A stretch of 64,000 nucleotides of DNA, taken from assembly GCA_017483575.1 (NCBI GenBank), contig JAFUWF010000005.1:114-64113 (forward strand), read 5' to 3'. How positions within the stretch are numbered: the stretch's first letter is position 1; every line of letters starts with the position of its first letter. Of the stretch, positions 8,159 through 63,968 are shown piece by piece. The notes beneath the pieces were generated by a model, which did no database searches, was not told the origin of the DNA, and worked only from the letters and a program-made list of their open reading frames with translations. The translations under genes were made by a program, and so were the position numbers. This DNA comes from Bacteroidales bacterium. Lineage in GTDB: Bacteria > Bacteroidota > Bacteroidia > Bacteroidales > P3.

Positions 8159-8372
8159 TCGGCGAATGCTCTTCCGCCGGCAGATTCATCGTCGGCGAAT
8201 TGAGCGTCAGAAGATTAAGCGTCGGCGAATTATGCGAATTAAGCGAATTTTCTATACAATATCTCGTCAAATTCGCTTAATTCGCCGACATATATAATTC
8301 GCTTAATTCGCTTAATTCGCCGACATATATAATTCGCTTAATTCGCTCAATTCGCCGACATATATAATTCGC
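8159..8372. repeat. Composite inverted plus tandem repeat between convergent genes
   Basis: GTCGGCGAATT occurs three times on the left. AATTCGC(TTAATTCGC)nCGACATATAT occurs three times in tandem on the right, as the reverse complement of the left units. The last unit supplies the final codons and stop of the minus-strand gene ending at 8347. Confidence 0.8.
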
Positions 8373-10005
8373 CGCTCAGCTGTTCCACGCAGCGCATGCC
8401 GTCGAGGGCGGAGGAGACGATGCCGCCGGCGTAGCCGGCACCTTCGCCGCAGGGATAGAGACCTTGCAACTGAGGATGTTGAAGGGTTGCTCGGTCGCGG
8501 GGGATACGCACGGGACTCGAGGTGCGGCTCTCCACGGCCAGCAACGAGGCCTCCTCGGTGACGAAGCCGTGCATCTTGCGGTCGAAGTCCTTGAACGCCT
8601 GTATCAGACAGTCCACCACGAAGGGGGGCAGCACCTCATGCAGCGGGGCGCTGACGCAGTGGCCCATATAGTTGCTCTTGTTCAGCCGCGACGAGGGGCG
8701 GCGCTCCAGGAAGTCCACCAGCCGCTGCGACGGGGCATCGATGCACCCGCCCGCGGCCTCGAAGACCCTCTGCTCCACAGCCTGCTGGAAGCGCAGCAGC
8801 GCCAACGGGTCGCACACTCCTCCGTCTGCCCTGCGGGCAGCCACCTCCCCTAACTTAGGGGAGGAACCAAGATAGCCAAGACAGCCTGCATCCTCCACTC
8901 CCACGGTGACGGCGATGCCGCTGTTGGCGAAGGCCGAGTTGCGGGCGGCGTTGCTCATGCCGTTCACCACCTGCTGTCCTCCCGCCGTGGCGGCAGGAAC
9001 GATGACGCCTCCGGGGCACATACAGAAACTGAACACGCCGTGCCCGGCAACCTGCGTGGTCAGGCTATAGGTGGCCGGGGGCAGCAGACGGGAATAGCCA
9101 CGGCCGTGATACTGAATCTCGTTGATCAGCTCCTGCGGGTGTTCCACACGGACCCCCAGGGCGAACGGCTTGGCATCCAGCAGCCAACCGCGGCGGGCAA
9201 AGAGCTCGTAGATGTCGCGTGCTGAGTGGCCCGTGGCAAGAACAACGGCGTCGCCCTCGACATGGAGCGTCTGCGGCCCGCCGGCATCGCTCCGCTCCGC
9301 CACCACCCCGCGGACGCGCCCCTCGCGCACCACAAGGTCCACCACACGCGTATTGAAATGATACTCACCGCCATGCGATAGTATGGTTTCGCGCATACGC
9401 GCGATGATGGCCGGCAGTCGGTCGGTACCGATATGGGCATGCACGTCGACCATGATGTCGGGATCGGCGCCATGCTCCACGAAGAGCCGCAGCACCTCGG
9501 AGACATCGCCGCGCTTGGTAGAGCGTGTGTAGAGCTTGCCGTCGCTGTAGGTCCCCGCGCCACCCTCGCCGAAACACCAGTTGCTGTCGGGGTTCACCAC
9601 CTTGGTGCGCACCATACCGACAATATCGGCCTTGCGCTCCTCCACGGGTTTGCCGCGTTCGACGATGACGGGTTTCATGCCCAACTGCAACGCCCTCAGC
9701 GCCGCGAAGAGCCCCGCGGGCCCAGCACCGACGATGACTACGCGGAATGGAGAATGAAGCATCGGCTGACCAGGAACGGGATTCTTCACTCTTGATTCTT
9801 GATTCTTCATTCCTGATTCTCCATTCACTTCCACGGTGCAGTGGTACACCACATGGCGGCGGCGGCAGTCGATGCTGCGACGCACAATCTGCCAACGCTC
9901 GCCGGCCTGCAGTCCGCGGCCGAGAACCTTCTCTACGGCACGCTTCACGGCGGCTTCCGAGGCATACTCCTCGGGCGTAAGGTCTATTTGTATCTGTTTC
10001 GCCAT
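8347..10005 (-). CDS. NAD(P)/FAD-dependent oxidoreductase (COG2509-like)
   Basis: Dinucleotide-binding VVIVGAGPAGLFAALRA, GEGGAGTYSDGKL, C-terminal GEGAGYAGGIVSSALDG. ATG at 10003-10005 (MAKQIQ...) inside track ORF 8347-10098. Confidence 0.8.
   Translation of the reverse strand: MAKQIQIDLTPEEYASEAAVKRAVEKVLGRGLQAGERWQIVRRSIDCRRRHVVYHCTVEVNGESGMKNQESRVKNPVPGQPMLHSPFRVVIVGAGPAGLFAALRALQLGMKPVIVERGKPVEERKADIVGMVRTKVVNPDSNWCFGEGGAGTYSDGKLYTRSTKRGDVSEVLRLFVEHGADPDIMVDVHAHIGTDRLPAIIARMRETILSHGGEYHFNTRVVDLVVREGRVRGVVAERSDAGGPQTLHVEGDAVVLATGHSARDIYELFARRGWLLDAKPFALGVRVEHPQELINEIQYHGRGYSRLLPPATYSLTTQVAGHGVFSFCMCPGGVIVPAATAGGQQVVNGMSNAARNSAFANSGIAVTVGVEDAGCLGYLGSSPKLGEVAARRADGGVCDPLALLRFQQAVEQRVFEAAGGCIDAPSQRLVDFLERRPSSRLNKSNYMGHCVSAPLHEVLPPFVVDCLIQAFKDFDRKMHGFVTEEASLLAVESRTSSPVRIPRDRATLQHPQLQGLYPCGEGAGYAGGIVSSALDGMRCVEQLSGELYMSAN
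8813..8865. repeat. In-frame two-hairpin palindromic element, copy A
   Basis: The reverse complement reads TCCTCCCCTAAGTTAGGGGAGGTGGCTGCCCGCAGGGCAGACGGAGGAGTGTG, matching 62760-62812. It is translated as SPKLGEVAARRADGGV inside the oxidoreductase. Confidence 0.7.
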
Positions 10006-10237
10006 TGCGACATCTTTTTCGTTTGAAACAAGGAGCAAAGTTACACAAAAAAACCGAAACACAGGCCAACAACCTCCAAAATAACCGCTATAACACATAC
10101 TATCAACTGTTTACACAAAGAACAACCACCCCCACTTCCCAGAAAAAACGCCCCCTCCATTCGCCAATTGGCGAAAGTCATTCACCCAAAATAACGCATT
10201 TTCACCCAACGAAAGAGGCATCTCATTCGTGTCTTAT

Positions 10238-10353
10238 TCGACTGTTCTTATATAGTATACATATAGTATGCATATACTTCTCATATAGTTCTTATATACA
10301 GTATATAAGAAGTATATGAGAAGTATATGTATACTATATGAATACTATATAAC
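10238..10353. repeat. AT-rich long imperfect palindrome (family P), copy P1
   Basis: Two ~53 bp arms (CTTATATAGTATACATATAGTATGCATATACTTCTCATATAGTTCTTATATAC and its near reverse complement) are centred at 10300, with a TCGACTGTTC flank on the left. Confidence 0.8.
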
Positions 10354-10515
10354 AAGGGGCGAAGTTGGGGCGTGTCGGAGTTACATCTGACTGCCGTGTG
10401 AGGTTATTGAGACAGAGCCTCTTCGAGGCTCTTGTTGCTGCATCGATATGTTAAATTTCTTGCGTTTGCCCTGTAGGTGGAGGAAGGTTTTTGGGTAGGT
10501 ATGAAAAAAAATATG

Positions 10516-23089: not shown

Positions 23090-23290
23090 CCTTTTCCTCG
23101 AAAGCGATGCCGACTTATGCGTTTTGGCAGGTCTTCTGGCTTGCTCCTCTCGACCCTGTCTTCCCATGCTCCTATGGCGGCGCACAGTGACTAACAGATT
23201 GGGTCTCAAACTCTCGAGCTTACAGCAGCGGGACTGCGCAGGACTCTCACCTGCTTCCCTTTTCGTACCCCGAAGGGTAACCAAAACGGG
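23090..23290 (-). promoter_or_regulatory. Cobalamin (B12) riboswitch, copy 1
   Basis: The minus strand reads ...GGTTACCCTTCGGGGTACGAAAAGGGAAGCAGGTGAGAGTCCTGCGCAGTCCCGCTGCTGTAAGC...CACTG...GGGAAGACAGGG...GCAAGCCAGAAGACCTGCC. This covers the conserved core and the B12 box. Confidence 0.85.
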
Positions 23291-23292
23291 TG

Positions 23293-23300
23293 CAAAAATA
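23293..23300 (-). promoter_or_regulatory. -7 promoter box (TATTTTTG on minus strand) driving riboswitch copy 1
   Basis: TTTTGTATTTTTGCAC immediately 5' of the riboswitch, identical in the paralogous copy at 30494-30501. Confidence 0.55.
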
Positions 23301-30289: not shown

Positions 30290-30495
30290 TTTCCTCGAAA
30301 GCGTCCCGGATATTTTTATCGTTTTGGCAGGTCTTCTGGCTTGCTCCTCTCGGCCCTGTCTTCCCATGCGGCTATGGCGTCACACAGTGACATAACAGAT
30401 TGGACCTCAAACTCTCGAGCTTACAGCAGCGGGACTGCGCCGGACTCTCACCGGCTTCCCTTTTCACACCCTTGCGGGTGACCAAAACGGCTGCA
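30290..30495 (-). promoter_or_regulatory. Cobalamin (B12) riboswitch, copy 2
   Basis: The minus strand reads GGTCACCCGCAAGGGTGTGAAAAGGGAAGCCGGTGAGAGTCCGGCGCAGTCCCGCTGCTGTAAGC...CACTGTGTGACGCCATAGCCGCATGGGAAGACAGGG...GCAAGCCAGAAGACCTGCC. It is a paralogue of copy 1. Confidence 0.85.
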
Positions 30496-30501
30496 AAAAT
30501 A
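30494..30501 (-). promoter_or_regulatory. -7 promoter box (TATTTTTG on minus strand) driving riboswitch copy 2
   Basis: TTTTGTATTTTTGCAG immediately 5' of the riboswitch. Confidence 0.55.
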
Positions 30502-30673
30502 CAAAATAAAACTCATTCCGCCAAAAAAAACTTCTCCTCCCCCACCCCATCCACCATCCGAACCAACCATCAACGGAACGCCAACGGACCATCATCGGAT
30601 CAAAAACGCTCCATCAACGCACCGCCAACCAATCCTCCACAAACCCCTGTCAACCAACCATCAACATCGCCAC

Positions 30674-30792
30674 TTCTCATATCGTATTCATATAGTATTC
30701 ATATACTTCTCATATAGTATTCATATACTGTATATAAGAAGTATATGAGAAGTATATGAATACTATATGTATACTATATAAGAACAGTCGAA
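30674..30792. repeat. AT-rich long imperfect palindrome (family P), copy P2, inverted relative to P1
   Basis: Arms match P1 and are centred at 30729. The asymmetric flank GAACAGTCGA is on the right, the reverse complement of the P1 left flank. Confidence 0.8.
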
Positions 30793-30881
30793 CAAAACAC
30801 CTGTTTGGTGGCAGTTTTTGGGGGGTGAAATTTCTGATGGTGGGCATATAATATTTTCGCGCGTTGTACGTTATTGGGGGT

Positions 30882-32999: not shown

Positions 33000-35261
33000 A
33001 TGAATGAACAACTAGCAAAACAGATACTGAAAATCTTTGTCAACAATCCCTTCGACGCTTTCAACCACAAGCAGATCAGCTCGCGCATAGGAGCGGGCAG
33101 CAAGGGGGAGCGTCAGGAGGTGATACGTACCATCCAGGAGCTGGCTGAGAGCAAGCAGCTGGTGGAGGACGACCACAAGGGGAAGTACAAGATCAACCCG
33201 AAGAATATCAACGACGACCTGGTGCCGAAGAGCTACGTGGAGGGCACCATCGACATGAAACAGGGAGGCAAAGCCTACGTGATCCCCAACGAAGAGGGGC
33301 GCGAGGACATACAGATAGCCCCGAACAACACGCACCATGCGCTGCACGGCGACACGGTGAAGGTGCTGATGTTCCCGCAAAGGAAGATGCACAAGCCGGA
33401 AGGACAGGTGGTGGAGATAGTGAAGAGGGCGAAGAAACGCTTCGTGGGCGTCATCCAGAAGCAGGAGCGGTTTGCCTTCATGGTGAGCGACAGCCGTACG
33501 ATGCCGGTGGACATCTTCATCCATATAGACGACCTTGGCGGCGCGGAGAACGGCGAGAAGGTGGTGGTGGAGATGACGGACTGGCCGGAGAGGATGAACA
33601 ATCCGGTGGGTAAGGTGATCAAACGCCTGGGAAAACCGGGCGACAACAACGTGGAGATGCAGAGCATCCTGGCGGAATACGACTTTCCGTTGGAGTTTCC
33701 GAAGGAGGCCGAGGAGGAGGCAAAGAAGATACGGAAGCCCACGAAGAAGGAGATGGCCTCGCGTCGCGACTTCCGGGATGTGCTGACGTTCACCATCGAC
33801 CCTGCCGACGCCAAGGATTTCGACGACGCCCTCTCCTACCGCGAACTGGAGAACGGCCACGTGGAGGTGGGGGTGCACATTGCGGATGTGTCGCACTATG
33901 TGAAGCCTGGCAGCGCGATAGACCGCGAGGCGTACGACCGCGGCACGAGTGTCTACCTGGTGGACCGTACCATTCCCATGCTGCCGGAGAAGTTGTGCAA
34001 CGACGTGTGCTCGCTGCGACAGGACGAGGAGAAGCTGTGTTTCAGCGTGGTGATGGAGATGGATGGCAAAGGGAAAGTATTGAACAGCTGGATGGGCAAG
34101 ACGGTCATCAAGAGTAACCGCCGCATGGCCTACGAGGAGGCACAGGAGATGATTGAGAGTGGAGAATCGGCTGACGCGGTGGCGGTGGCGGTGCTGAAGC
34201 TGCACGGGCTGGCGACAAGGCTGCGGGAAGCCCGTTTCAAGACGGGTGCCATCAACTTCGAGAGCCAGGAGGTGAAGTTCCAGCTGGACGAGAACGCGAA
34301 GCCCATAGGCGTGTACATCAAGGAGAGCAAGGAGGCGAACTGGCTGATCGAAGAGTTTATGCTGCTGGCCAACAAGACGGTGGCGGAGCGCATAGGGAAG
34401 GTAGACAAGACGAAGGGAAAAGGAGAAGGGGCGAAGACGTTCGTCTACCGCGTGCACGACGAGCCGAATCCGGAGAAACTGAACACGTTCGTGGAGTTTG
34501 TGGCGAAGCTGGGGTTCAGCATGAAGACCACGAGCCGCAAGGCCTTGGCCGAGAGCTACAACCGGCTGTTCGAGAACATTGCCGGACGTGGCGAGGAGAA
34601 CATGATAGACACGATAGCCATCCGGACGATGAGCAAGGCGTACTACAGCACGGAGAACATAGGCCACTACGGCCTGGCGTTCCCGTTCTACACGCACTTC
34701 ACGTCGCCCATCCGCCGCTACCCGGACCTGATGGTGCACAGGTTGCTGGAGCGATACCTCGAGGGTGGCGCCAGCGCCAACAAGGAGGAGTACGAGGAAT
34801 ACTGCAAGCACTGCTCGATCATGGAGAAGAAGGCTGCCGATGCCGAGCGCACCAGCGTCAAATACAAGCAGGCGGAATTCCTGGCCGACAAGCTGGGGCA
34901 AGTGTTCCCGGCACTCATCAGCGGCGTGAGCAAATGGGGTATCTACGCTGAAATCGAGGGGAACAAGTGCGAGGGCATGATACCCATCGGGAGCCTGAAG
35001 GACGACTACTACATGCTGGACGAGGACAACTACCAGGTGATCGGGCGCCGGCACGGCCGCACGTACAAGCTGGGCTACCCAGTCAATATCCGCGTGAAGC
35101 GTGTCGACATGCTGAAGAAGCAGATAGACTTCGAGCTGGTGGAGGAGGAAGAGAATGCCGGCCGCAAACCCGGGAAACCCGGAAAACCTGGAAAATCCGG
35201 AAAGCCCGGAAAGCCCGAGAAACCCGGAAAATCCGGAAAATCCGGGAAGAAAAAGAAATAA
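33000..35261 (+). CDS. rnr: Ribonuclease R
   Basis: RNB catalytic domain (FTIDPADAKDFDDALS), cold-shock-like N-terminus, S1 domain, Lys-rich tail; 753 aa. Confidence 0.9.
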   Translation: MNEQLAKQILKIFVNNPFDAFNHKQISSRIGAGSKGERQEVIRTIQELAESKQLVEDDHKGKYKINPKNINDDLVPKSYVEGTIDMKQGGKAYVIPNEEGREDIQIAPNNTHHALHGDTVKVLMFPQRKMHKPEGQVVEIVKRAKKRFVGVIQKQERFAFMVSDSRTMPVDIFIHIDDLGGAENGEKVVVEMTDWPERMNNPVGKVIKRLGKPGDNNVEMQSILAEYDFPLEFPKEAEEEAKKIRKPTKKEMASRRDFRDVLTFTIDPADAKDFDDALSYRELENGHVEVGVHIADVSHYVKPGSAIDREAYDRGTSVYLVDRTIPMLPEKLCNDVCSLRQDEEKLCFSVVMEMDGKGKVLNSWMGKTVIKSNRRMAYEEAQEMIESGESADAVAVAVLKLHGLATRLREARFKTGAINFESQEVKFQLDENAKPIGVYIKESKEANWLIEEFMLLANKTVAERIGKVDKTKGKGEGAKTFVYRVHDEPNPEKLNTFVEFVAKLGFSMKTTSRKALAESYNRLFENIAGRGEENMIDTIAIRTMSKAYYSTENIGHYGLAFPFYTHFTSPIRRYPDLMVHRLLERYLEGGASANKEEYEEYCKHCSIMEKKAADAERTSVKYKQAEFLADKLGQVFPALISGVSKWGIYAEIEGNKCEGMIPIGSLKDDYYMLDEDNYQVIGRRHGRTYKLGYPVNIRVKRVDMLKKQIDFELVEEEENAGRKPGKPGKPGKSGKPGKPEKPGKSGKSGKKKK

Positions 35262-40492: not shown

Positions 40493-40755
40493 GAAGTGTA
40501 ACCCCTCACTCCACACACCCCTCCCCCATCGAGCAGGAACCGGACTGCCATTTTGTCAGTCCCCAAAACCCGTTTTCTCCCACTCATCACCCACTTTGGT
40601 GGGAGTTGGTAGGGAGATGATAGGAAGTTGGTAGGGTGTTAATCGGTAAATGGCACCTATGGGACTGCCATTTTGTCAGTACAGGATACTGTGGCAAAAA
40701 GGGTGGCAAAATGTTTTTTTTCGACTTTTGTGGTTGTGGTTCTGGAAAAAAAACG

Positions 40756-51534: not shown

Positions 51535-51705
51535 ACAACGCCCCGAAGGGGCAGCGAGCTACTAGCCCAGGGCATCACCCTGGGTATCGGTATATTGTGG
51601 CATTTCTCGCCCCGAAGGGGCAAAAGCCCTAATAGGAAACAATGCTTTTGCCCTTTCAGGGCGTATGATACCTGCCTTCCACACCCAGGGCGTTGCCCTG
51701 GGCTA
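51535..51705. repeat. Cluster of GC-rich REP-like hairpins (3' side of the transposase gene)
   Basis: GCCCC-GAA-GGGGC occurs twice, together with CCCAGGG-CATCA-CCCTGGG, GCCCT-TTC-AGGGC and CCCAGGGC-GTT-GCCCTGGG. Confidence 0.65.
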
Positions 51706-51741
51706 TGCGCTTTCCGGCCTTTCCGGCCGATTATCGGGTAC

Positions 51742-52197
51742 CTAATCAGAGAATACATACCGCTCGTCATAATCCACATTGTATGATTTCAAAAATGCAA
51801 GATACTCGTCGCGGAAACTCTGCTTCTTGTGATGCTCCCGCTGGTTCCCAACATATTCTATGGTTTTGTCGACCACCGACTGACTGACCGAAAACACGGC
51901 ATATCCACCTTGCCAGGCGAACTTCTCGTATCGGGCATCTATGGTCTTTATCCATCGGCTACTGTTGCGCTTTACCTCCTCCACAAGATGTGCCACATTC
52001 TCGTTCCTCGACAGCATGCACAAGATATGGACATGGTCGCCGATGCCGCCGACACGGATAACCTGGCAGCCGGTGGTGTTGACCAGTTGACCGATATAGC
52101 TATGCAGACGGTCTAAATGTTCGTCGGCTATCTGCGGACTAGTGGTCTTCACGTGGAAGATGATATGCAAGTATATTTTACAAAGCGATTGTGCCAT
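51742..52197 (-). mobile_element. IS200/Y1-type HUH transposase, REP-associated tyrosine transposase (RAYT)-like
   Basis: HUH motif GDHVHIL. Catalytic Tyr context FAWQGGYAVFSVS. 151 aa from the ATG at 52195-52197. Lower GC than the surroundings and flanked on both sides by REP-like hairpins. Confidence 0.8.
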
Positions 52198-52204
52198 ATT
52201 TGTG

Positions 52205-52385
52205 TTGCTTTTGCCCCAAGGCGTTGCCATTTAGGTTCCCATGGAGTTGCCATTGGGCTGATTGCTTTTGCCCCTTCGGGGCGTTGGTTGTTTTGTCGTT
52301 TCGTTACCCAGGGCGTTGCCCTGGGCTGTTGGCGTGTTGTCCCAGGGCGGTGCCCTGGGCTAGGTGCTTTTTGTCCTTTCAGGCC
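52205..52385. repeat. Cluster of GC-rich REP-like hairpins (5' side of the transposase gene)
   Basis: GCCCC-TTC-GGGGC, CCCAGGGC-GTT-GCCCTGGG (identical to the copy at about 51683) and CCCAGGGC-GGT-GCCCTGGG. Confidence 0.65.
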
Positions 52386-55675: not shown

Positions 55676-56353
55676 CTATCTGATTCTCGTCCAGTCGATG
55701 GGCTGCTGGCCTTGTAGCTGCAACAGTTGGTTGCATTGGCTGAAGTGGCGGCAGCCGAAGAAGCCCCTGTAGGCCGAGAGCGGCGACGGGTGCGGGGCCG
55801 TCAGCACATGGTGTTTCGTCTGGTCAATCATCGCCTTCTTGGCAATGGCATAGCTGCCCCAAAGGAGGAAGACAATGCCCGTGCGCCGTTCAGACAACGT
55901 CCGGATGGCGGCGTCTGTGAAGGTCTCCCACCCGTGGCGCTGGTGGCTGCCGGCCTGGTGGGCACGCACGGTGAGGGTGGCGTTGAGCAGCAGCACCCCC
56001 TGTTCGGCCCAGCCACTGAGGTCACCGCTGGTCTTGGGAATATCAACGCCGAGGTCGGTGTTGATTTCCTGTATGATGTTCACCAGCGACGGTGGCACCT
56101 GCACACCGTCGGGGACCGAGAAGCAGAGACCCATGGCCTGTCCGGGCTCGTGGTAGGGGTCCTGCCCGAGGATGACCACCTTCACCTTGCCGAAAGGCGT
56201 ATGGTCGAAGGCAGCGAAGATATCGCCTCCCTTGGGATAGCAGGTGTACTGGCTCCGCTCCGCCACAAGGAATTCCTTCAGCTGCGCGAAATAGGGCGCC
56301 TCGAACTGTGGCCGTAGCACCTCGTACCAACTGGGGTCTATCTTTACGTTCAT
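55676..56353 (-). CDS. ung: Uracil-DNA glycosylase
   Basis: VVILGQDPYHEPGQAMGLCFSV and HPSPLSA motifs; 225 aa. Confidence 0.9.
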   Translation of the reverse strand: MNVKIDPSWYEVLRPQFEAPYFAQLKEFLVAERSQYTCYPKGGDIFAAFDHTPFGKVKVVILGQDPYHEPGQAMGLCFSVPDGVQVPPSLVNIIQEINTDLGVDIPKTSGDLSGWAEQGVLLLNATLTVRAHQAGSHQRHGWETFTDAAIRTLSERRTGIVFLLWGSYAIAKKAMIDQTKHHVLTAPHPSPLSAYRGFFGCRHFSQCNQLLQLQGQQPIDWTRIR

Positions 56354-57045
56354 GCCAAAAAGGAGTTGTATTTGCGCTCTTTGCCGATGCTGCTGGCGAT
56401 GCCGTGGCCGGGGAGGACCGTGTAGTCGTCGGGGAGCGTCATGATGCGCGTCTTGATTTTCTCGATGAGCAGAGGATAGCTGCCACCCGGCAGGTCCGTG
56501 CGGCCGATGCTGAAATGGAACAGCGCATCGCCGGTGATGACGGCGGGTGTAGGGGAGCTGGCAGCCCTATAAGGGCTGACTGAGGAGTGTGTCGTAACCA
56601 CGAAGCACATGCTCCCCGGGCAATGCCCCGGCACATATCGACACTCAACATATAAATCTCCGAGCTCAATAACGTCCCCGTCATTGAGCTCCACCACATC
56701 GAGGTCGCTCATGTCGTCCACGGCGAAGCCCATGATGCTGCCGTAGGCCTCGGCCTGTCGCAGCAACTTGCGGCCGTCCTTATGCATAGTGACCGGCAAC
56801 CCGAAGTGCTCGCAGCATTGCCGCAAGCCAGCGATGTGGTCCACATGGGCGTGCGTCAGCAGGATGTGCCTCACCGTCAGACCCTCGGCCTCGATATACT
56901 GCAGCAACTGCGAGTCCTCAAACGAGGCCTCGCAGGCGGGATCCACGATGGCGCACTGCCGTTTCTCCCCCTCCGTGGGGACACGGTCGTCGGAGACCAC
57001 GTAGCAGTTCACCTCGTAGTGGTTGAATGTAAACTGTTTAATCAT
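56350..57045 (-). CDS. MBL-fold metallo-hydrolase
   Basis: HAHVDHIAG (HxHxDH) motif; 231 aa. Carries a ~16 aa insert encoded by the palindromic element variant. Confidence 0.8.
56548..56592. repeat. Variant or partial copy (D) of the in-frame palindromic element, opposite translation orientation
   Basis: AGGGGAGCTGGCAGCCCTATAAGGGCTGACTGAGGAGTGTGT shares the AGGGGAGnTGGC...hairpin...ACnGAGGAGTGTGT frame with copy B. Translated as [14 protein letters not shown] in the MBL hydrolase. Confidence 0.45.
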
Positions 57046-61278: not shown

Positions 61279-62466
61279 ATGAAATCAAACGTCCTGACAA
61301 TCATAAAGAAAGAGTTCGCCCGCTTCTTCGGCGACCGACAGCTGCTGTTCACCACGGTCATCATGCCCGGCCTGCTCATCTACCTCATCTACAGTTTCAT
61401 GGGCACCGGCATCGAGAGCATGGTCACCGAAGGGGCCGAGGAAATGGTGACCGTCCGTGTGGAGAACCTCCCCACCACCATCGCACCCCTTCTCGGCGAG
61501 CTCGACCCCAACACCGTCGTCGTCGAACAGCCGTTCGTCGAACAGGACATCTACCTTCTGGAAGACAAGGACATCGACAACGTCCTTGTGCGCTTCCCTA
61601 TCGGCTTTGACTCGCTACTCGCCACCTACGACCCTTCCGAGGGCCTCCCCGCCCCCAACATCGAAATCTACTACAACTCCACCAACAACGCCTCCTCGCG
61701 GGTTTTCAACGAGCTCACCGAAGCCCTCACGGCTTTCGAGGACGGCATCAGCAACCGCTTCGATATCAACCGTTCCGATTGTCCGACGTTTTCCTATGAC
61801 CAGGCCTCCGACGAGAGCATCGGCGCCATGGTCTGGAGCAAGATCCTCCCCATGCTCATCATGATGATGCTCTTCTCCGGCGTCATGGCCATAGCCCCCA
61901 GCGCCATCGCCGGCGAGAAGGAACGCGGCACCATAGCCACCCTCCTCGTCACACCCATGCGCCGCAACGAACTCGCCATGGGCAAGATCGTCTCCCTCTC
62001 CTGCATAGCCCTGCTCAGCGGCATCTCCAGCTTCATCGGCATAGCCCTCTCGCTGCCCAACATGGTGCCCGACGCCGGCACCCTCTCCTTCCACTACACC
62101 GCCTCCGACTACCTCGTCCTCCTGCTTGTCATCTTCGCCTCCGTGCTCATCATGGCCTCCGCCGTCAGCCTCCTCTCCGCCCTGGCCAAGGACGTCAAGA
62201 ACGCCGGCACCATGATCACCCCCTTCATGCTCATCGTCATGCTGGCAGGCCTCCTGCCCATGTTCCAGAACGGCGCCTCGGACAACCTCGCCGTCTACCT
62301 CATCCCCTTCTACAACTCCATGGAGGTGATGGTGGCCGTCTTCCTGCACGAGATGCAGTGGGGCCCCGTACTCATCACCCTCGGAGCCAACGTCGTCTAC
62401 ACCGGCGTCGCCGTCTGGGGCCTCACACGCATGTTCAACAGCGAAAAGGTGATGTTCTCCAGGTAA
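61279..62466 (+). CDS. ABC-2 family transporter permease (NatB-like)
   Basis: An N-terminal TM helix, a large extracytoplasmic loop, then five TM helices; 395 aa. Confidence 0.75.
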   Translation: MKSNVLTIIKKEFARFFGDRQLLFTTVIMPGLLIYLIYSFMGTGIESMVTEGAEEMVTVRVENLPTTIAPLLGELDPNTVVVEQPFVEQDIYLLEDKDIDNVLVRFPIGFDSLLATYDPSEGLPAPNIEIYYNSTNNASSRVFNELTEALTAFEDGISNRFDINRSDCPTFSYDQASDESIGAMVWSKILPMLIMMMLFSGVMAIAPSAIAGEKERGTIATLLVTPMRRNELAMGKIVSLSCIALLSGISSFIGIALSLPNMVPDAGTLSFHYTASDYLVLLLVIFASVLIMASAVSLLSALAKDVKNAGTMITPFMLIVMLAGLLPMFQNGASDNLAVYLIPFYNSMEVMVAVFLHEMQWGPVLITLGANVVYTGVAVWGLTRMFNSEKVMFSR

Positions 62467-62501: not shown

Positions 62502-63968
62502 ATGAAAAAAGGCTTATTCGTCCTCGCTTTTCAATTTTCAATTCTCAACTGCCAATTTGCCTATGCCCAATGGTGGACCGCCTGGAGCCCCAAGACCGGC
62601 CTCGCCCTCTGCCTACACCAGGCCGACACCCTCTTCGAGCTCTACAGCCCCCTCCAGTCCCCCACTCCCATCCCCGTCAGCAAGTGGTCTTTACAGAACG
62701 ACACCCTCCGCTTCGAATGCTCCTCCATCGGCCTGAAGCTCACCCTGATACATTCTCTCTCCTCCCCTAAGTTAGGGGAGGTGGCCGCACGCAGTGCGGA
62801 CGGAGGAGTGTGTAGCGAATGGCACGGCACCTGGCGCCAAGGCCTCCTCCGCGAAGCCATCTCCTTCCTCCCCGCCGACACCCTCTACCAGCTCCGCCGC
62901 CCGCAGACCCCGCAGCCGCCTTACCCCTACACCGAAGAGACCCTCGCCGCCGACTACATCGACTCCCACGGCGACACCATCCACCTCGAAGGTACCCTCA
63001 CCGTGCCGCGCGACTCGGTCGCGCGGAGACACCCCGCCCTCCTCCTCGTCTCCGGCTCCGGCCAGCAGAACCGCGACGAGGAGCTCTTCCAGCACCGCCC
63101 CTTCCTCGTCCTGGCCGACTTCCTGGCCCGCCACGGCATCGCCACCCTCCGCTACGACGACCGCGGCGTCGGCGCTTCCCGCGGCCCCCTCGACTCCGCC
63201 ACCACCCTCACCTTCGCCGAGGACGCCGAAGCACTCTTCAACGTGCTGAAGCGTCATCCAGCCGTCAACCCCGCACGCATCGGCATCGGCGGCCACAGCG
63301 AGGGCGCCGCCATAGCACCCATCATCGCGACAAGAAACAAAGAGGTGAAATACGTCGTCATGCTCGCCGGACAAGGCTGTACGGGACTCGACATCATGGT
63401 GCAGCAGAACGAAGCCCTCTTCCGCTCCCGCGGCGTCAGCCCACGCCTCTGCGCCCTCCGCGCCGCCTGCATGCGCGACCTGTTGTCCCGCCGGGATGGA
63501 CCGCCGGCGTCCAGCCGGCAAGAAACCACCGTGGGGGACCTGCAAACCGTCATCCTCCGCCACACCGACGGCCTCACGAAAGAGGAAATCGACAGCATAG
63601 ACCTCCGCAAAGGCATGGCCTACAGCCTCAAACAGCAACTCGACCTCCCCTGGATGCAGGCCTTCCTCGCCCTCGACCCCGCCAGCTATCTCCCCAACGT
63701 ACAGTGCCCCGTGCTCGCCCTCTGCGGCGACCGCGACTGCCAAGTGCCCGCCCAGCCCAACCTCCAGCGCATCAAGCAACTGTGCCCCAAGGCCGAAACC
63801 CACGAACTCCCCGGCCTCAACCACCTCTTCCAGCATTGCTCCACGGGCTCCCCGGACGAATACATACAAATCGAAGAGACCTTCGCCCCCGAAGCCATGC
63901 GCCTCATCCTGGGCTTCCTCCTCGCCCACGAACTCCTCCCCGCCGGCGCCCCCACAGCTACCCGATAG
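62502..63968 (+). CDS. Alpha/beta-hydrolase-fold secreted protein
   Basis: Signal peptide. Nucleophile elbow GIGGHSEGA. C-terminal ...GLNHLFQ region. 488 aa. Carries palindromic element copy B in frame. Confidence 0.75.
   Translation: MKKGLFVLAFQFSILNCQFAYAQWWTAWSPKTGLALCLHQADTLFELYSPLQSPTPIPVSKWSLQNDTLRFECSSIGLKLTLIHSLSSPKLGEVAARSADGGVCSEWHGTWRQGLLREAISFLPADTLYQLRRPQTPQPPYPYTEETLAADYIDSHGDTIHLEGTLTVPRDSVARRHPALLLVSGSGQQNRDEELFQHRPFLVLADFLARHGIATLRYDDRGVGASRGPLDSATTLTFAEDAEALFNVLKRHPAVNPARIGIGGHSEGAAIAPIIATRNKEVKYVVMLAGQGCTGLDIMVQQNEALFRSRGVSPRLCALRAACMRDLLSRRDGPPASSRQETTVGDLQTVILRHTDGLTKEEIDSIDLRKGMAYSLKQQLDLPWMQAFLALDPASYLPNVQCPVLALCGDRDCQVPAQPNLQRIKQLCPKAETHELPGLNHLFQHCSTGSPDEYIQIEETFAPEAMRLILGFLLAHELLPAGAPTATR
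62760..62812. repeat. In-frame two-hairpin palindromic element, copy B
   Basis: TCCTCCCCTAAGTTAGGGGAGGTGGCCGCACGCAGTGCGGACGGAGGAGTGTG. Hairpin 1 is CCTCCCCTAA/TTAGGGGAGG and hairpin 2 is CCGCA-CGCAG-TGCGG. Translated as SPKLGEVAARSADGGV. Confidence 0.7.

Follow-up and report, generated by a model that had tools for sequence, protein, structure and literature searches.

A two-hairpin DNA repeat carried in frame by unrelated enzymes of a Bacteroidales genome, probably a member of a dispersed non-coding repeat family

In a 64,000-nucleotide stretch of DNA from a Bacteroidales bacterium (GenBank assembly GCA_017483575.1, contig JAFUWF010000005.1, positions 114 to 64,113 of the forward strand; here called the window) an FAD-dependent protein and an alpha/beta hydrolase both contain the peptide SSPKLGEVAAR[R/S]ADGGVC. 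The question raised by this locus is how unrelated enzymes came to share a peptide, and what kind of DNA element, composed of two hairpins and a conserved tail, encodes it. The inspection of the source genome, a metagenome-assembled genome (MAG), covered this window. In our judgement the element probably belongs to a family of dispersed, non-coding hairpin repeats from gut Bacteroidales and behaves like repetitive extragenic palindromic (REP) sequences, REP doublets forming hairpins (REPINs) or a small MITE (a transposable element of miniature size with inverted repeats).

As an earlier reading made from the sequence alone had claimed, one and the same DNA element encodes the shared peptide: the stretches 8813-8865 (minus strand) and 62760-62812 (plus strand) are reverse-complementary 53-nt copies, identical at 49/53 positions (92%) and both translated in frame. 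Copy A occupies at full length 8811..8868 (-) and is matched by the covariance model R1 with 56.2 bits (E=2.7e-20); it lies inside the gene of the FAD-dependent protein (583 codons, 8347..10098 (-); PF21688, homologue of PDB entry 3nlc, 7e-101). Copy B, 62757..62814 (+) (R1 61.4 bits, E=2e-22), lies inside the gene of the secreted alpha/beta hydrolase (62502..63968 (+)), where the insert is N-terminal, at residues about 87-104, ahead of the catalytic domain. Hairpin 1 (8844..8864 (-) in copy A, 62761..62781 (+) in copy B) is a palindrome with 10-nt arms around one central base (CCTCCCCTAA-G-TTAGGGGAGG in copy A), in agreement with the sequence-only reading; its 21 nt, CCTCCCCTAAGTTAGGGGAGG, are present at both copies, whereas shuffled sequences are expected to contain it 0.00 times. 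Hairpin 2 had been drawn with a 5-bp stem and a 5-nt loop and is better described by a 6-bp stem with a 3-nt GCA loop, CTGCCC-GCA-GGGCAG at 8826..8840 (-) and CCGCAC-GCA-GTGCGG at 62785..62799 (+). The conserved 3' tail GGAGGAGTGTG follows at 8813..8823 (-) and 62802..62812 (+), respectively.

All four differences between the full copies are accounted for by two base pairs of hairpin 2, one changed from T:A to C:G and the other from C:G to A:T; pairing is thereby kept, as had been noticed before. By our own arithmetic, four random differences would make two complementary pairs among the about 16 pairs of the element with a chance of about 5e-5. When folded as single-stranded DNA (ssDNA), each of the strands forms the two hairpins (z-scores -3.4 to -4.2). 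Because three of the four substitutions are synonymous, at third codon positions, copies A and B alone cannot tell a conserved peptide from a conserved structure; the earlier claim that the structure and not the peptide is conserved therefore does not follow from this pair, and holds at the level of the family, in which hairpin 2 varies and stays paired.

The third, partial or variant copy of the sequence-only reading was found to be a truncated relative at 56550..56591 (+), recognized by a gapped pattern and by its fold and read on the opposite strand in the gene of a glyoxalase II-like hydrolase of the metallo-beta-lactamase (MBL) fold (56350..57045 (-)). In common with the full copies it has TAGGGGAG-N-TGG (3' arm of hairpin 1 and linker) followed by AC-N-GAGGAGTGTG (tail), and the gapped pattern of these shared parts matches exactly three sites in the window, with 0.00 expected by chance. 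Hairpin 2 sits in the same place (56562-56578, CAGCCCT-ATA-AGGGCTG) with an unrelated sequence; the 5' arm of hairpin 1 is missing, and the covariance model scores the tail alone (E=0.15). The peptide of this copy, THSSVS...SSP, corresponds to the stop-free frame of the reverse orientation, which is seen too in other copies (e.g. in the stretch L003). A weak match of the covariance model at 40512-40547 (-) (15.7 bits, E about 7e-4 by rough calibration), with the tail GGAGGGGTGTGTG and no hairpin 1, may be a decayed copy or a chance match.

Comparison of the host proteins with their relatives bears out the proposed in-frame insertion into unrelated enzymes. Aligned to 3nlc, the FAD-dependent protein has about 20 extra residues at the insert, CLGYLG-SSPKLGEVAARRADGGVC, a loop preceding the helix DPLALLRFQ. 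All but three of its 120 best relatives have nothing resembling the element at this point (e.g. VGPEDVGAEG-PLGLLEFQ); in the remaining three (79% identical) the site is occupied by the same element, whose hairpin 2 shows a compensated pair of differences. In the AlphaFold model the insert has a low predicted local distance difference test (pLDDT) score of 55-66 and lies between a conserved strand and a helix, which is consistent with a loop, its surface exposure not being proven by the model. Most orthologues of the alpha/beta hydrolase read TLIKN--NDWTGTWRQG at the insert site and a few hold other variants of the element, while the MBL hydrolase has 13-15 extra residues at the variant copy relative to three solved (PDB) homologues. 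Polymorphism of the host proteins within the species was looked for in their 90%-identity clusters, which contain no full-length member short enough to be free of the insert; members of 552 residues predominate. Among the orthologues (P0049-P0119, P0133-P0159) different repeat-derived inserts, TDHYPLSTDHSPL..., LNLEPETLNLEPGT... and CSPSPTTPTSCSPSQ..., are found in both loops that hold the element, at positions matching 8813-8883 and 62742-62813 of the window; repeats of several kinds have these two loops as hot spots or as permissive sinks.

The existence of a repeat family, proposed by the sequence-only reading, is supported by a pattern search and the covariance model run beyond the window. 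A collection with one genome per species was scanned with the exact hairpin 1, either central base being allowed. The scan matched at least 118 stretches (cited here by L numbers where they must be told apart) from at least 46 assemblies, mostly ruminant-gut Bacteroidales. Among the matches listed, the carriers are MAGs from the gut of ruminants and other hosts, mostly assigned to Tidjanibacter, Alistipes and further Rikenellaceae, to Prevotellaceae, Muribaculaceae, Bacteroidaceae and Porphyromonadaceae. Listed stretches and window together hold at least 138 exact hairpin 1 copies, and at least 9-12 copies per MAG were counted among them. The covariance model gave 355 matches in 695 kb of 100 listed stretches, a number that includes opposite-strand and partial matches at the same site. 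The consensus reads 5' (A)CT, hairpin 1 (CCTCCCC-TAAGTTA-GGGGAGG), T or G, hairpin 2, and then the tail GGAGGAGTNTGT, with a core length of 46-54 nt. Hairpin 2 has a G+C stem of 4-7 bp and mostly a C-GNA-G triloop on one strand; the tail, GGAGGAGTGTG with the variants GGAGGGGTCTG, GGAGAGGTCTG and GGAGGAGTCTG, followed by T, is a conserved single-stranded segment of 11-12 nt.

Covariation was studied in an alignment of 77 distinct copies, in which hairpin 1 is fixed by the search pattern and hence uninformative. Hairpin 2 is 90% paired and shows double changes in 5/5 pairs, with a covariation of 0.244, compared with 0.058 for shuffled alignments and at most 0.033 for slid partners. The nucleotides 5' of hairpin 1 covary with the tail (column 4 x column 51: UA 36, UG 22, CG 18). 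The 8-nt ends of the element, ACTCCTCC ... GGAGGAGT, are complementary to each other, 5/8 of their bases belonging to the stem of hairpin 1, and conservation runs on in the 3' direction (NTGT).

The behaviour of hairpin 1 bears on a reading in which the element is a duplex-DNA binding site for a dimeric, nucleoid-associated or regulatory protein, hairpin 1 being a near-perfect 21-bp palindrome conserved across bacterial families. A parallel is offered by BIMEs (bacterial interspersed mosaic elements), to which IHF and gyrase bind. In favour of such a site, hairpin 1 has one and the same sequence in assemblies with the labels of at least five Bacteroidales families (Rikenellaceae, Prevotellaceae, Muribaculaceae, Bacteroidaceae and Porphyromonadaceae), and its central TAAGTTA is kept even when the stem changes. 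However, this invariance is partly a product of the search, which demanded an exact hairpin 1, and copies with a diverged hairpin 1 detected by the covariance model keep their stems paired by double changes (e.g. CCTCCTCTAAGTTAGAGGAGG in L017). Moreover, hairpin 2 is without any sequence conservation, and the spread of copies into open reading frames (ORFs) is left unexplained by a binding site, which we regard as quite unlikely to be the nature of the element.

Inverted pairs of the element 70-100 nt apart, arranged head-to-head (L035, L050, L069, L017) or tail-to-tail (L016, L070) and lying within longer repeated units, are common in some MAGs; the copies of the window and many Rikenellaceae copies are single. 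In a Bacteroides MAG (L035 1116-1303, L050 442-629, L069, L090, L113, L033 4041-4096) head-to-head pairs form part of a repeat unit of more than 300 nt, followed by tandem copies of the tail motif (GAGGAGTCTGTGAATACA...), and many contigs of this MAG end at the unit. An abiF RNA motif (RF03085, 58.5 bits) was observed between two tail-to-tail pairs at L016 5239-5275 (-).

Copies were counted as genic when at least 60 stop-free codons were present on both sides. By this measure 14/138 listed copies (about 10%) are genic and about 90% intergenic. Each orientation of the element has exactly one stop-free frame, SSPKLGEV... or THSS...SPNLGE, which genic copies always use, and this is the reason why unrelated enzymes share a peptide. 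The further hosts that were checked are genuine genes from mutually unrelated families (Eco57I-type methylase, Dus, DegT aminotransferase, BD-FAE hydrolase, RadA-like protein, OMP decarboxylase, ABC exporter and ABC-F protein), and the Pfam alignment spans the insert in several of them. Genic inserts add about 13-24 residues at sites that are empty in most orthologues. A profile of the peptide matched 33 of 1.84 billion representative proteins at E<=0.001, among them a TrmH-like methyltransferase, a DUF559-like protein and many short ORFs, the latter probably translated intergenic copies. A subfamily of 54 nt specialized for ORFs was suggested by the long hairpin 2 variants (20 or 22 nt), found almost all in ORFs of the genome loci; it was rejected after a metagenome scan for the subfamily of the window gave 27 copies, about 5 of them in long ORFs.

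These data also bear on the view that unrelated enzymes share the peptide as a protein motif, ancestral or convergent, with the identity of the DNA being secondary. That copies A and B differ by synonymous changes in three cases out of four would fit such a motif, but the view is refuted by the lack of the segment in most orthologues and by the mostly intergenic position of the same DNA; in addition, the peptide changes wherever hairpin 2 changes, and the opposite orientation yields a different peptide. We give it practically no credence.

With respect to the flanking genes the orientation of the element is evenly spread over the four possible arrangements (14, 17, 11 and 18 cases), as judged from crude gene calls. 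This distribution is relevant to the idea of a structured RNA, acting as stabilizer, processing site or translational switch, in which CCUCC of hairpin 1 would compete with two GGAGG motifs and the hairpins would be needed in the transcript. The strong covariation of hairpin 2, the preference of G.U-type pairs over A.C on one strand, the conserved, Shine-Dalgarno-like single-stranded tail GGAGGAG and the ability of the end nucleotides to pair with the tail are all features that an RNA might show. On the other hand, orientation is unrelated to the direction of the flanking genes, and coding regions hold copies in both orientations. Rfam contains no family that matches the element at gathering score (window and nine loci), nor anything credible at E<=10. 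GNA triloops with a C-G closing pair typify DNA rather than RNA hairpins, and Shine-Dalgarno pairing is little used in Bacteroidales. A role as RNA is accordingly considered unlikely.

The preferred reading of the element as a dispersed repeat draws on the pattern of variation within and between genomes. The tail variant is nearly uniform within a genome and different between genomes (10/12, 10/11, 11/11 and 8/9 of the listed copies), hairpin 2 varies within genomes yet stays paired, and identical copies occur at different loci. Uniform tails combined with variable hairpins 2 are the pattern expected of amplification within each genome. Among the loops of hairpin 2, 92/119 are triloops, 64 of the type GNA versus 1 TNC, and the closing pair is C-G in 112/119. 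G.T mismatches (22) outnumber A.C mismatches (3), these counts not being phylogenetically independent. DNA mini-hairpins with a C-GNA-G triloop, as studied by Hirao and Yoshizawa, are reportedly extraordinarily stable; such triloops suggest that a single DNA strand is recognized in its folded form, in the manner of IS200/IS605 elements and REP-associated tyrosine transposases (RAYTs).

Copies would thus multiply within genomes by a copy-in mechanism that recognizes a folded single strand. The active strand would be the consensus strand, which bears the GNA triloops and tolerates G.T but not A.C mismatches, and the agent would most likely be a trans-acting HUH/Y1 enzyme of the IS200/RAYT type or a similar hairpin-binding enzyme. 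Selection would remove genic insertions save those in frame in permissive loops, hence the shared peptide.

An origin that dispenses with transposition would assume that the element arises locally and is homogenized by template switching, replication slippage and gene conversion, the host loops being hot spots for filler sequences. Intra-strand template switching is known to perfect quasi-palindromes, and the loops of orthologues of host proteins 1 and 2 carry unrelated repeat-derived peptides (TDHYPLS..., LNLEPET..., CSPSPTTPTS...). Furthermore, a tandem repeat of 2 x 9 nt stands ahead of copy A, and a short-period tandem array lies within 60 nt of 37% of the copies, compared with 8% of random positions. 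As this control was not limited to intergenic DNA, a specific tie to short tandem repeats is not claimed. Near-identical 50-nt copies at many unlinked loci in many genera cannot be produced by local processes, and this origin is held to be very unlikely.

The intergenic regions 8221-8372, 10227-10374, 30656-30803 and 35157-35258 of the window are packed with tandem repeats of 7-11 nt, the blocks 10229-10367 and 30662-30800 being mutually 90% complementary, and the same packing is found at L048 4430-4920 and L150 1650-1880 and 2560-2900. In related genomes whole intergenic regions consist of tandem arrays among which the hairpin element is interspersed. The window also contains two riboswitches of the cobalamin class (108 and 112 bits) at 23109-23300 (-) and 30309-30501 (-), upstream of similar repeated gene blocks.

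A candidate for the enzyme is encoded in the window itself. The gene at 51742-52230 (-), 162 codons, codes for a Y1_Tnp (IS200-like/RAYT-like) homologue (PF01797, E=1.5e-20) that scores under the NCBIfam cut-offs for IS200 and RAYT alike. Its flanks, 51540-51730 and 52260-52360, contain the inverted hairpins CGCCCC-GAA-GGGGC-AAAAGC and CCCAGGGC-GTT-GCCCTGGG, and homologues in two other lineages have the same flank hairpins at single fixed loci, within a suf operon and between an integrase gene and hpf. As the cognate enzyme of the element this protein was rejected, its flank hairpins being different and no element being nearby; the only likeness is that of the flank hairpins to hairpin 2. Gene and flanks look like a domesticated single-copy Y1 unit. 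Likewise, the genes enclosed by element pairs (L063, L070) are ordinary genes and not transposases. Carriage by phages or plasmids was rejected as well: no phage match was obtained, and a plasmid collection delivered a related copy from Vescimonas and a weak match in Deinococcus.

Several observations weigh against the preferred reading. No transposition event was found, and an all-against-all BLAST of the fetched loci for presence/absence alleles revealed three gap events without a clean single-element insertion; in one of them (L033 versus L050 and L113) a paralogous unit is without both hairpin 1 copies and the spacer. By inspection, and with the exact ends uncertain, no consistent direct repeat (target-site duplication) flanks the 138 listed copies or the filled and empty alleles of the FAD protein. 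No empty site was found in a close relative (>90% identity), the nearest insert-free FAD orthologue being 81% identical. Filled alleles at one site in several orthologues differ in the sequence of hairpin 2, a difference that could result from old vertical inheritance, from gene conversion or from repeated insertion. Part of the strand asymmetry goes back to a small number of subfamilies, one position giving 14/18 of the T.G cases. No match of R1 was present near the Y1 gene and its homologues (12 loci, one Y1 lineage), and 836 kb of loci bearing the element contain none of the Y1 flank hairpins. The crude gene calls behind the orientation counts belong here, too.

Related sequences occur outside the Bacteroidales. 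The cultured Firmicute Vescimonas fastidiosa (L119 1498-1552 = pMM35_01 62116-62170) has a copy of the same architecture with another hairpin 1 loop, CCTCCCC-TGCGTAA-GGGGAGG-T-GGCGC-GAA-GCGCC-GGAAGGGT, at two places only in the 861-kb replicon, and the metagenomic contigs L123 and L137 contain variants similar to it. Assembly JAMPEL, labelled Roseburia sp. (L017, L039, L087, L092, L093, L108), has at least 7 copies with the exact Bacteroidales hairpin 1; its label or binning may be wrong, or the element may cross phyla. A more far-reaching reading, which we regard as rather unlikely, would make the element a branch of a wider, undescribed superfamily 'CCTCCCC-loop-GGGGAGG + T + GNA-loop mini-hairpin + GGAGG' in gut Bacteroidota and Bacillota, with horizontal spread, drive via ssDNA by a conserved, single-locus Y1 enzyme that has hairpins like hairpin 2 on its own flanks, and a steady supply of new surface loops to hundreds of enzymes across the gut microbiome. 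It is based on the Vescimonas fastidiosa copy and on similar peptides in unrelated metagenomic proteins.

The element shows that genic selfish DNA, a classic trait of Rickettsia, is common also in abundant gut and rumen Bacteroidales, one 50-nt repeat being the source of odd additional loops in numerous unrelated enzymes. In annotation and structure modelling, SSPKLGEV... and ...SPNLGE can serve as a simple flag for a repeat-derived insertion that is not part of the fold. MAG assemblies are broken by the element as well, many of its copies being found where contigs end. One frozen hairpin next to one that mutates freely and yet stays paired provides a clean natural case for the study of how hairpin repeats are recognized and copied and how protein loops are born.

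Among known systems, MITEs and the miniature elements derived from IS200/IS605 (palindrome-associated transposable elements, PATEs) resemble the element in being non-coding, multi-copy and small, and its complementary ends, ACTCCTCC ... GGAGGAGT, may represent short terminal inverted repeats like theirs. Two hairpins and an asymmetric strand signature would suit single-strand 'peel and paste' transposition. Typical MITEs (70-300 bp) are larger, and in the case of the element no target-site duplication was seen by inspection and no parent insertion sequence that shares its ends was detected. In IS200/IS605 the hairpins of the left and the right end resemble each other, whereas the two hairpins of the element are dissimilar.

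With REP sequences, BIMEs and REPINs (PMC3733652; Bertels and Rainey 2011, PMC3116915) the element shares short, G+C-rich hairpins in high copy number and mainly extragenic position, stems that vary but pair, and a minority of copies in ORFs that encode extra residues. The inverted pairs of some MAGs may correspond to the inverted dimers in which REPs often occur, and to REPINs, where two inverted REPs with a short spacer between them make up one long hairpin as the unit of replication. Catalogues covering several phyla include genic REPs that contribute 20-30 residues (PMC3733652), and CGTC REPs occur in Bacteroidetes without a known transposase (Di Nocera et al. 2013, PMC3733652). Unlike REPs, the element combines two dissimilar hairpins, of which one is nearly invariant and the other hypervariable, with a conserved single-stranded tail. 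It also differs from GTAG and CGTC REPs, which have an unpaired tag (and a CCA-type tail in CGTC REPs), in lacking a general tag, its consensus being ...GGGGAGG-T-stem-loop-stem-GGAGG; CGTC appears solely in subfamilies with GAC at the end of hairpin 2, such as the window copies, there on the reverse strand, and is absent from the common TGCCC-GAA-GGGC-GGAGG type. In contrast to the REP/RAYT system (REPtron), in which a RAYT gene present once stands between inverted copies of the repeat, no RAYT gene flanked by the element was found at the 12 loci of one Y1 lineage.

The likeness to Rickettsia palindromic elements (RPEs; Ogata et al. 2000), drawn by the sequence-only reading, stands in that copies occur in frame in unrelated genes for which insert-free orthologues exist. 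As described in PMC10969869, RPEs, the classic in-frame example, are palindromic repeats of about 100-150 bp in obligate intracellular Alphaproteobacteria, first noticed mostly inside genes and lying in frame in many unrelated, apparently functional ones. As in RPEs so described, the added peptide is apparently tolerated by the fold; unlike them, the element has 46-54 nt, is about 90% intergenic and lives in free-living gut Bacteroidales, so that it is set apart by size and host and no kinship in sequence is expected. A search of a library of papers found the exact element sequence in none of them, and we rate the element as a new family, repeats inside genes, including in-frame ones, being already known. 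Its analogy with RPEs is one of behaviour, not of sequence or size.

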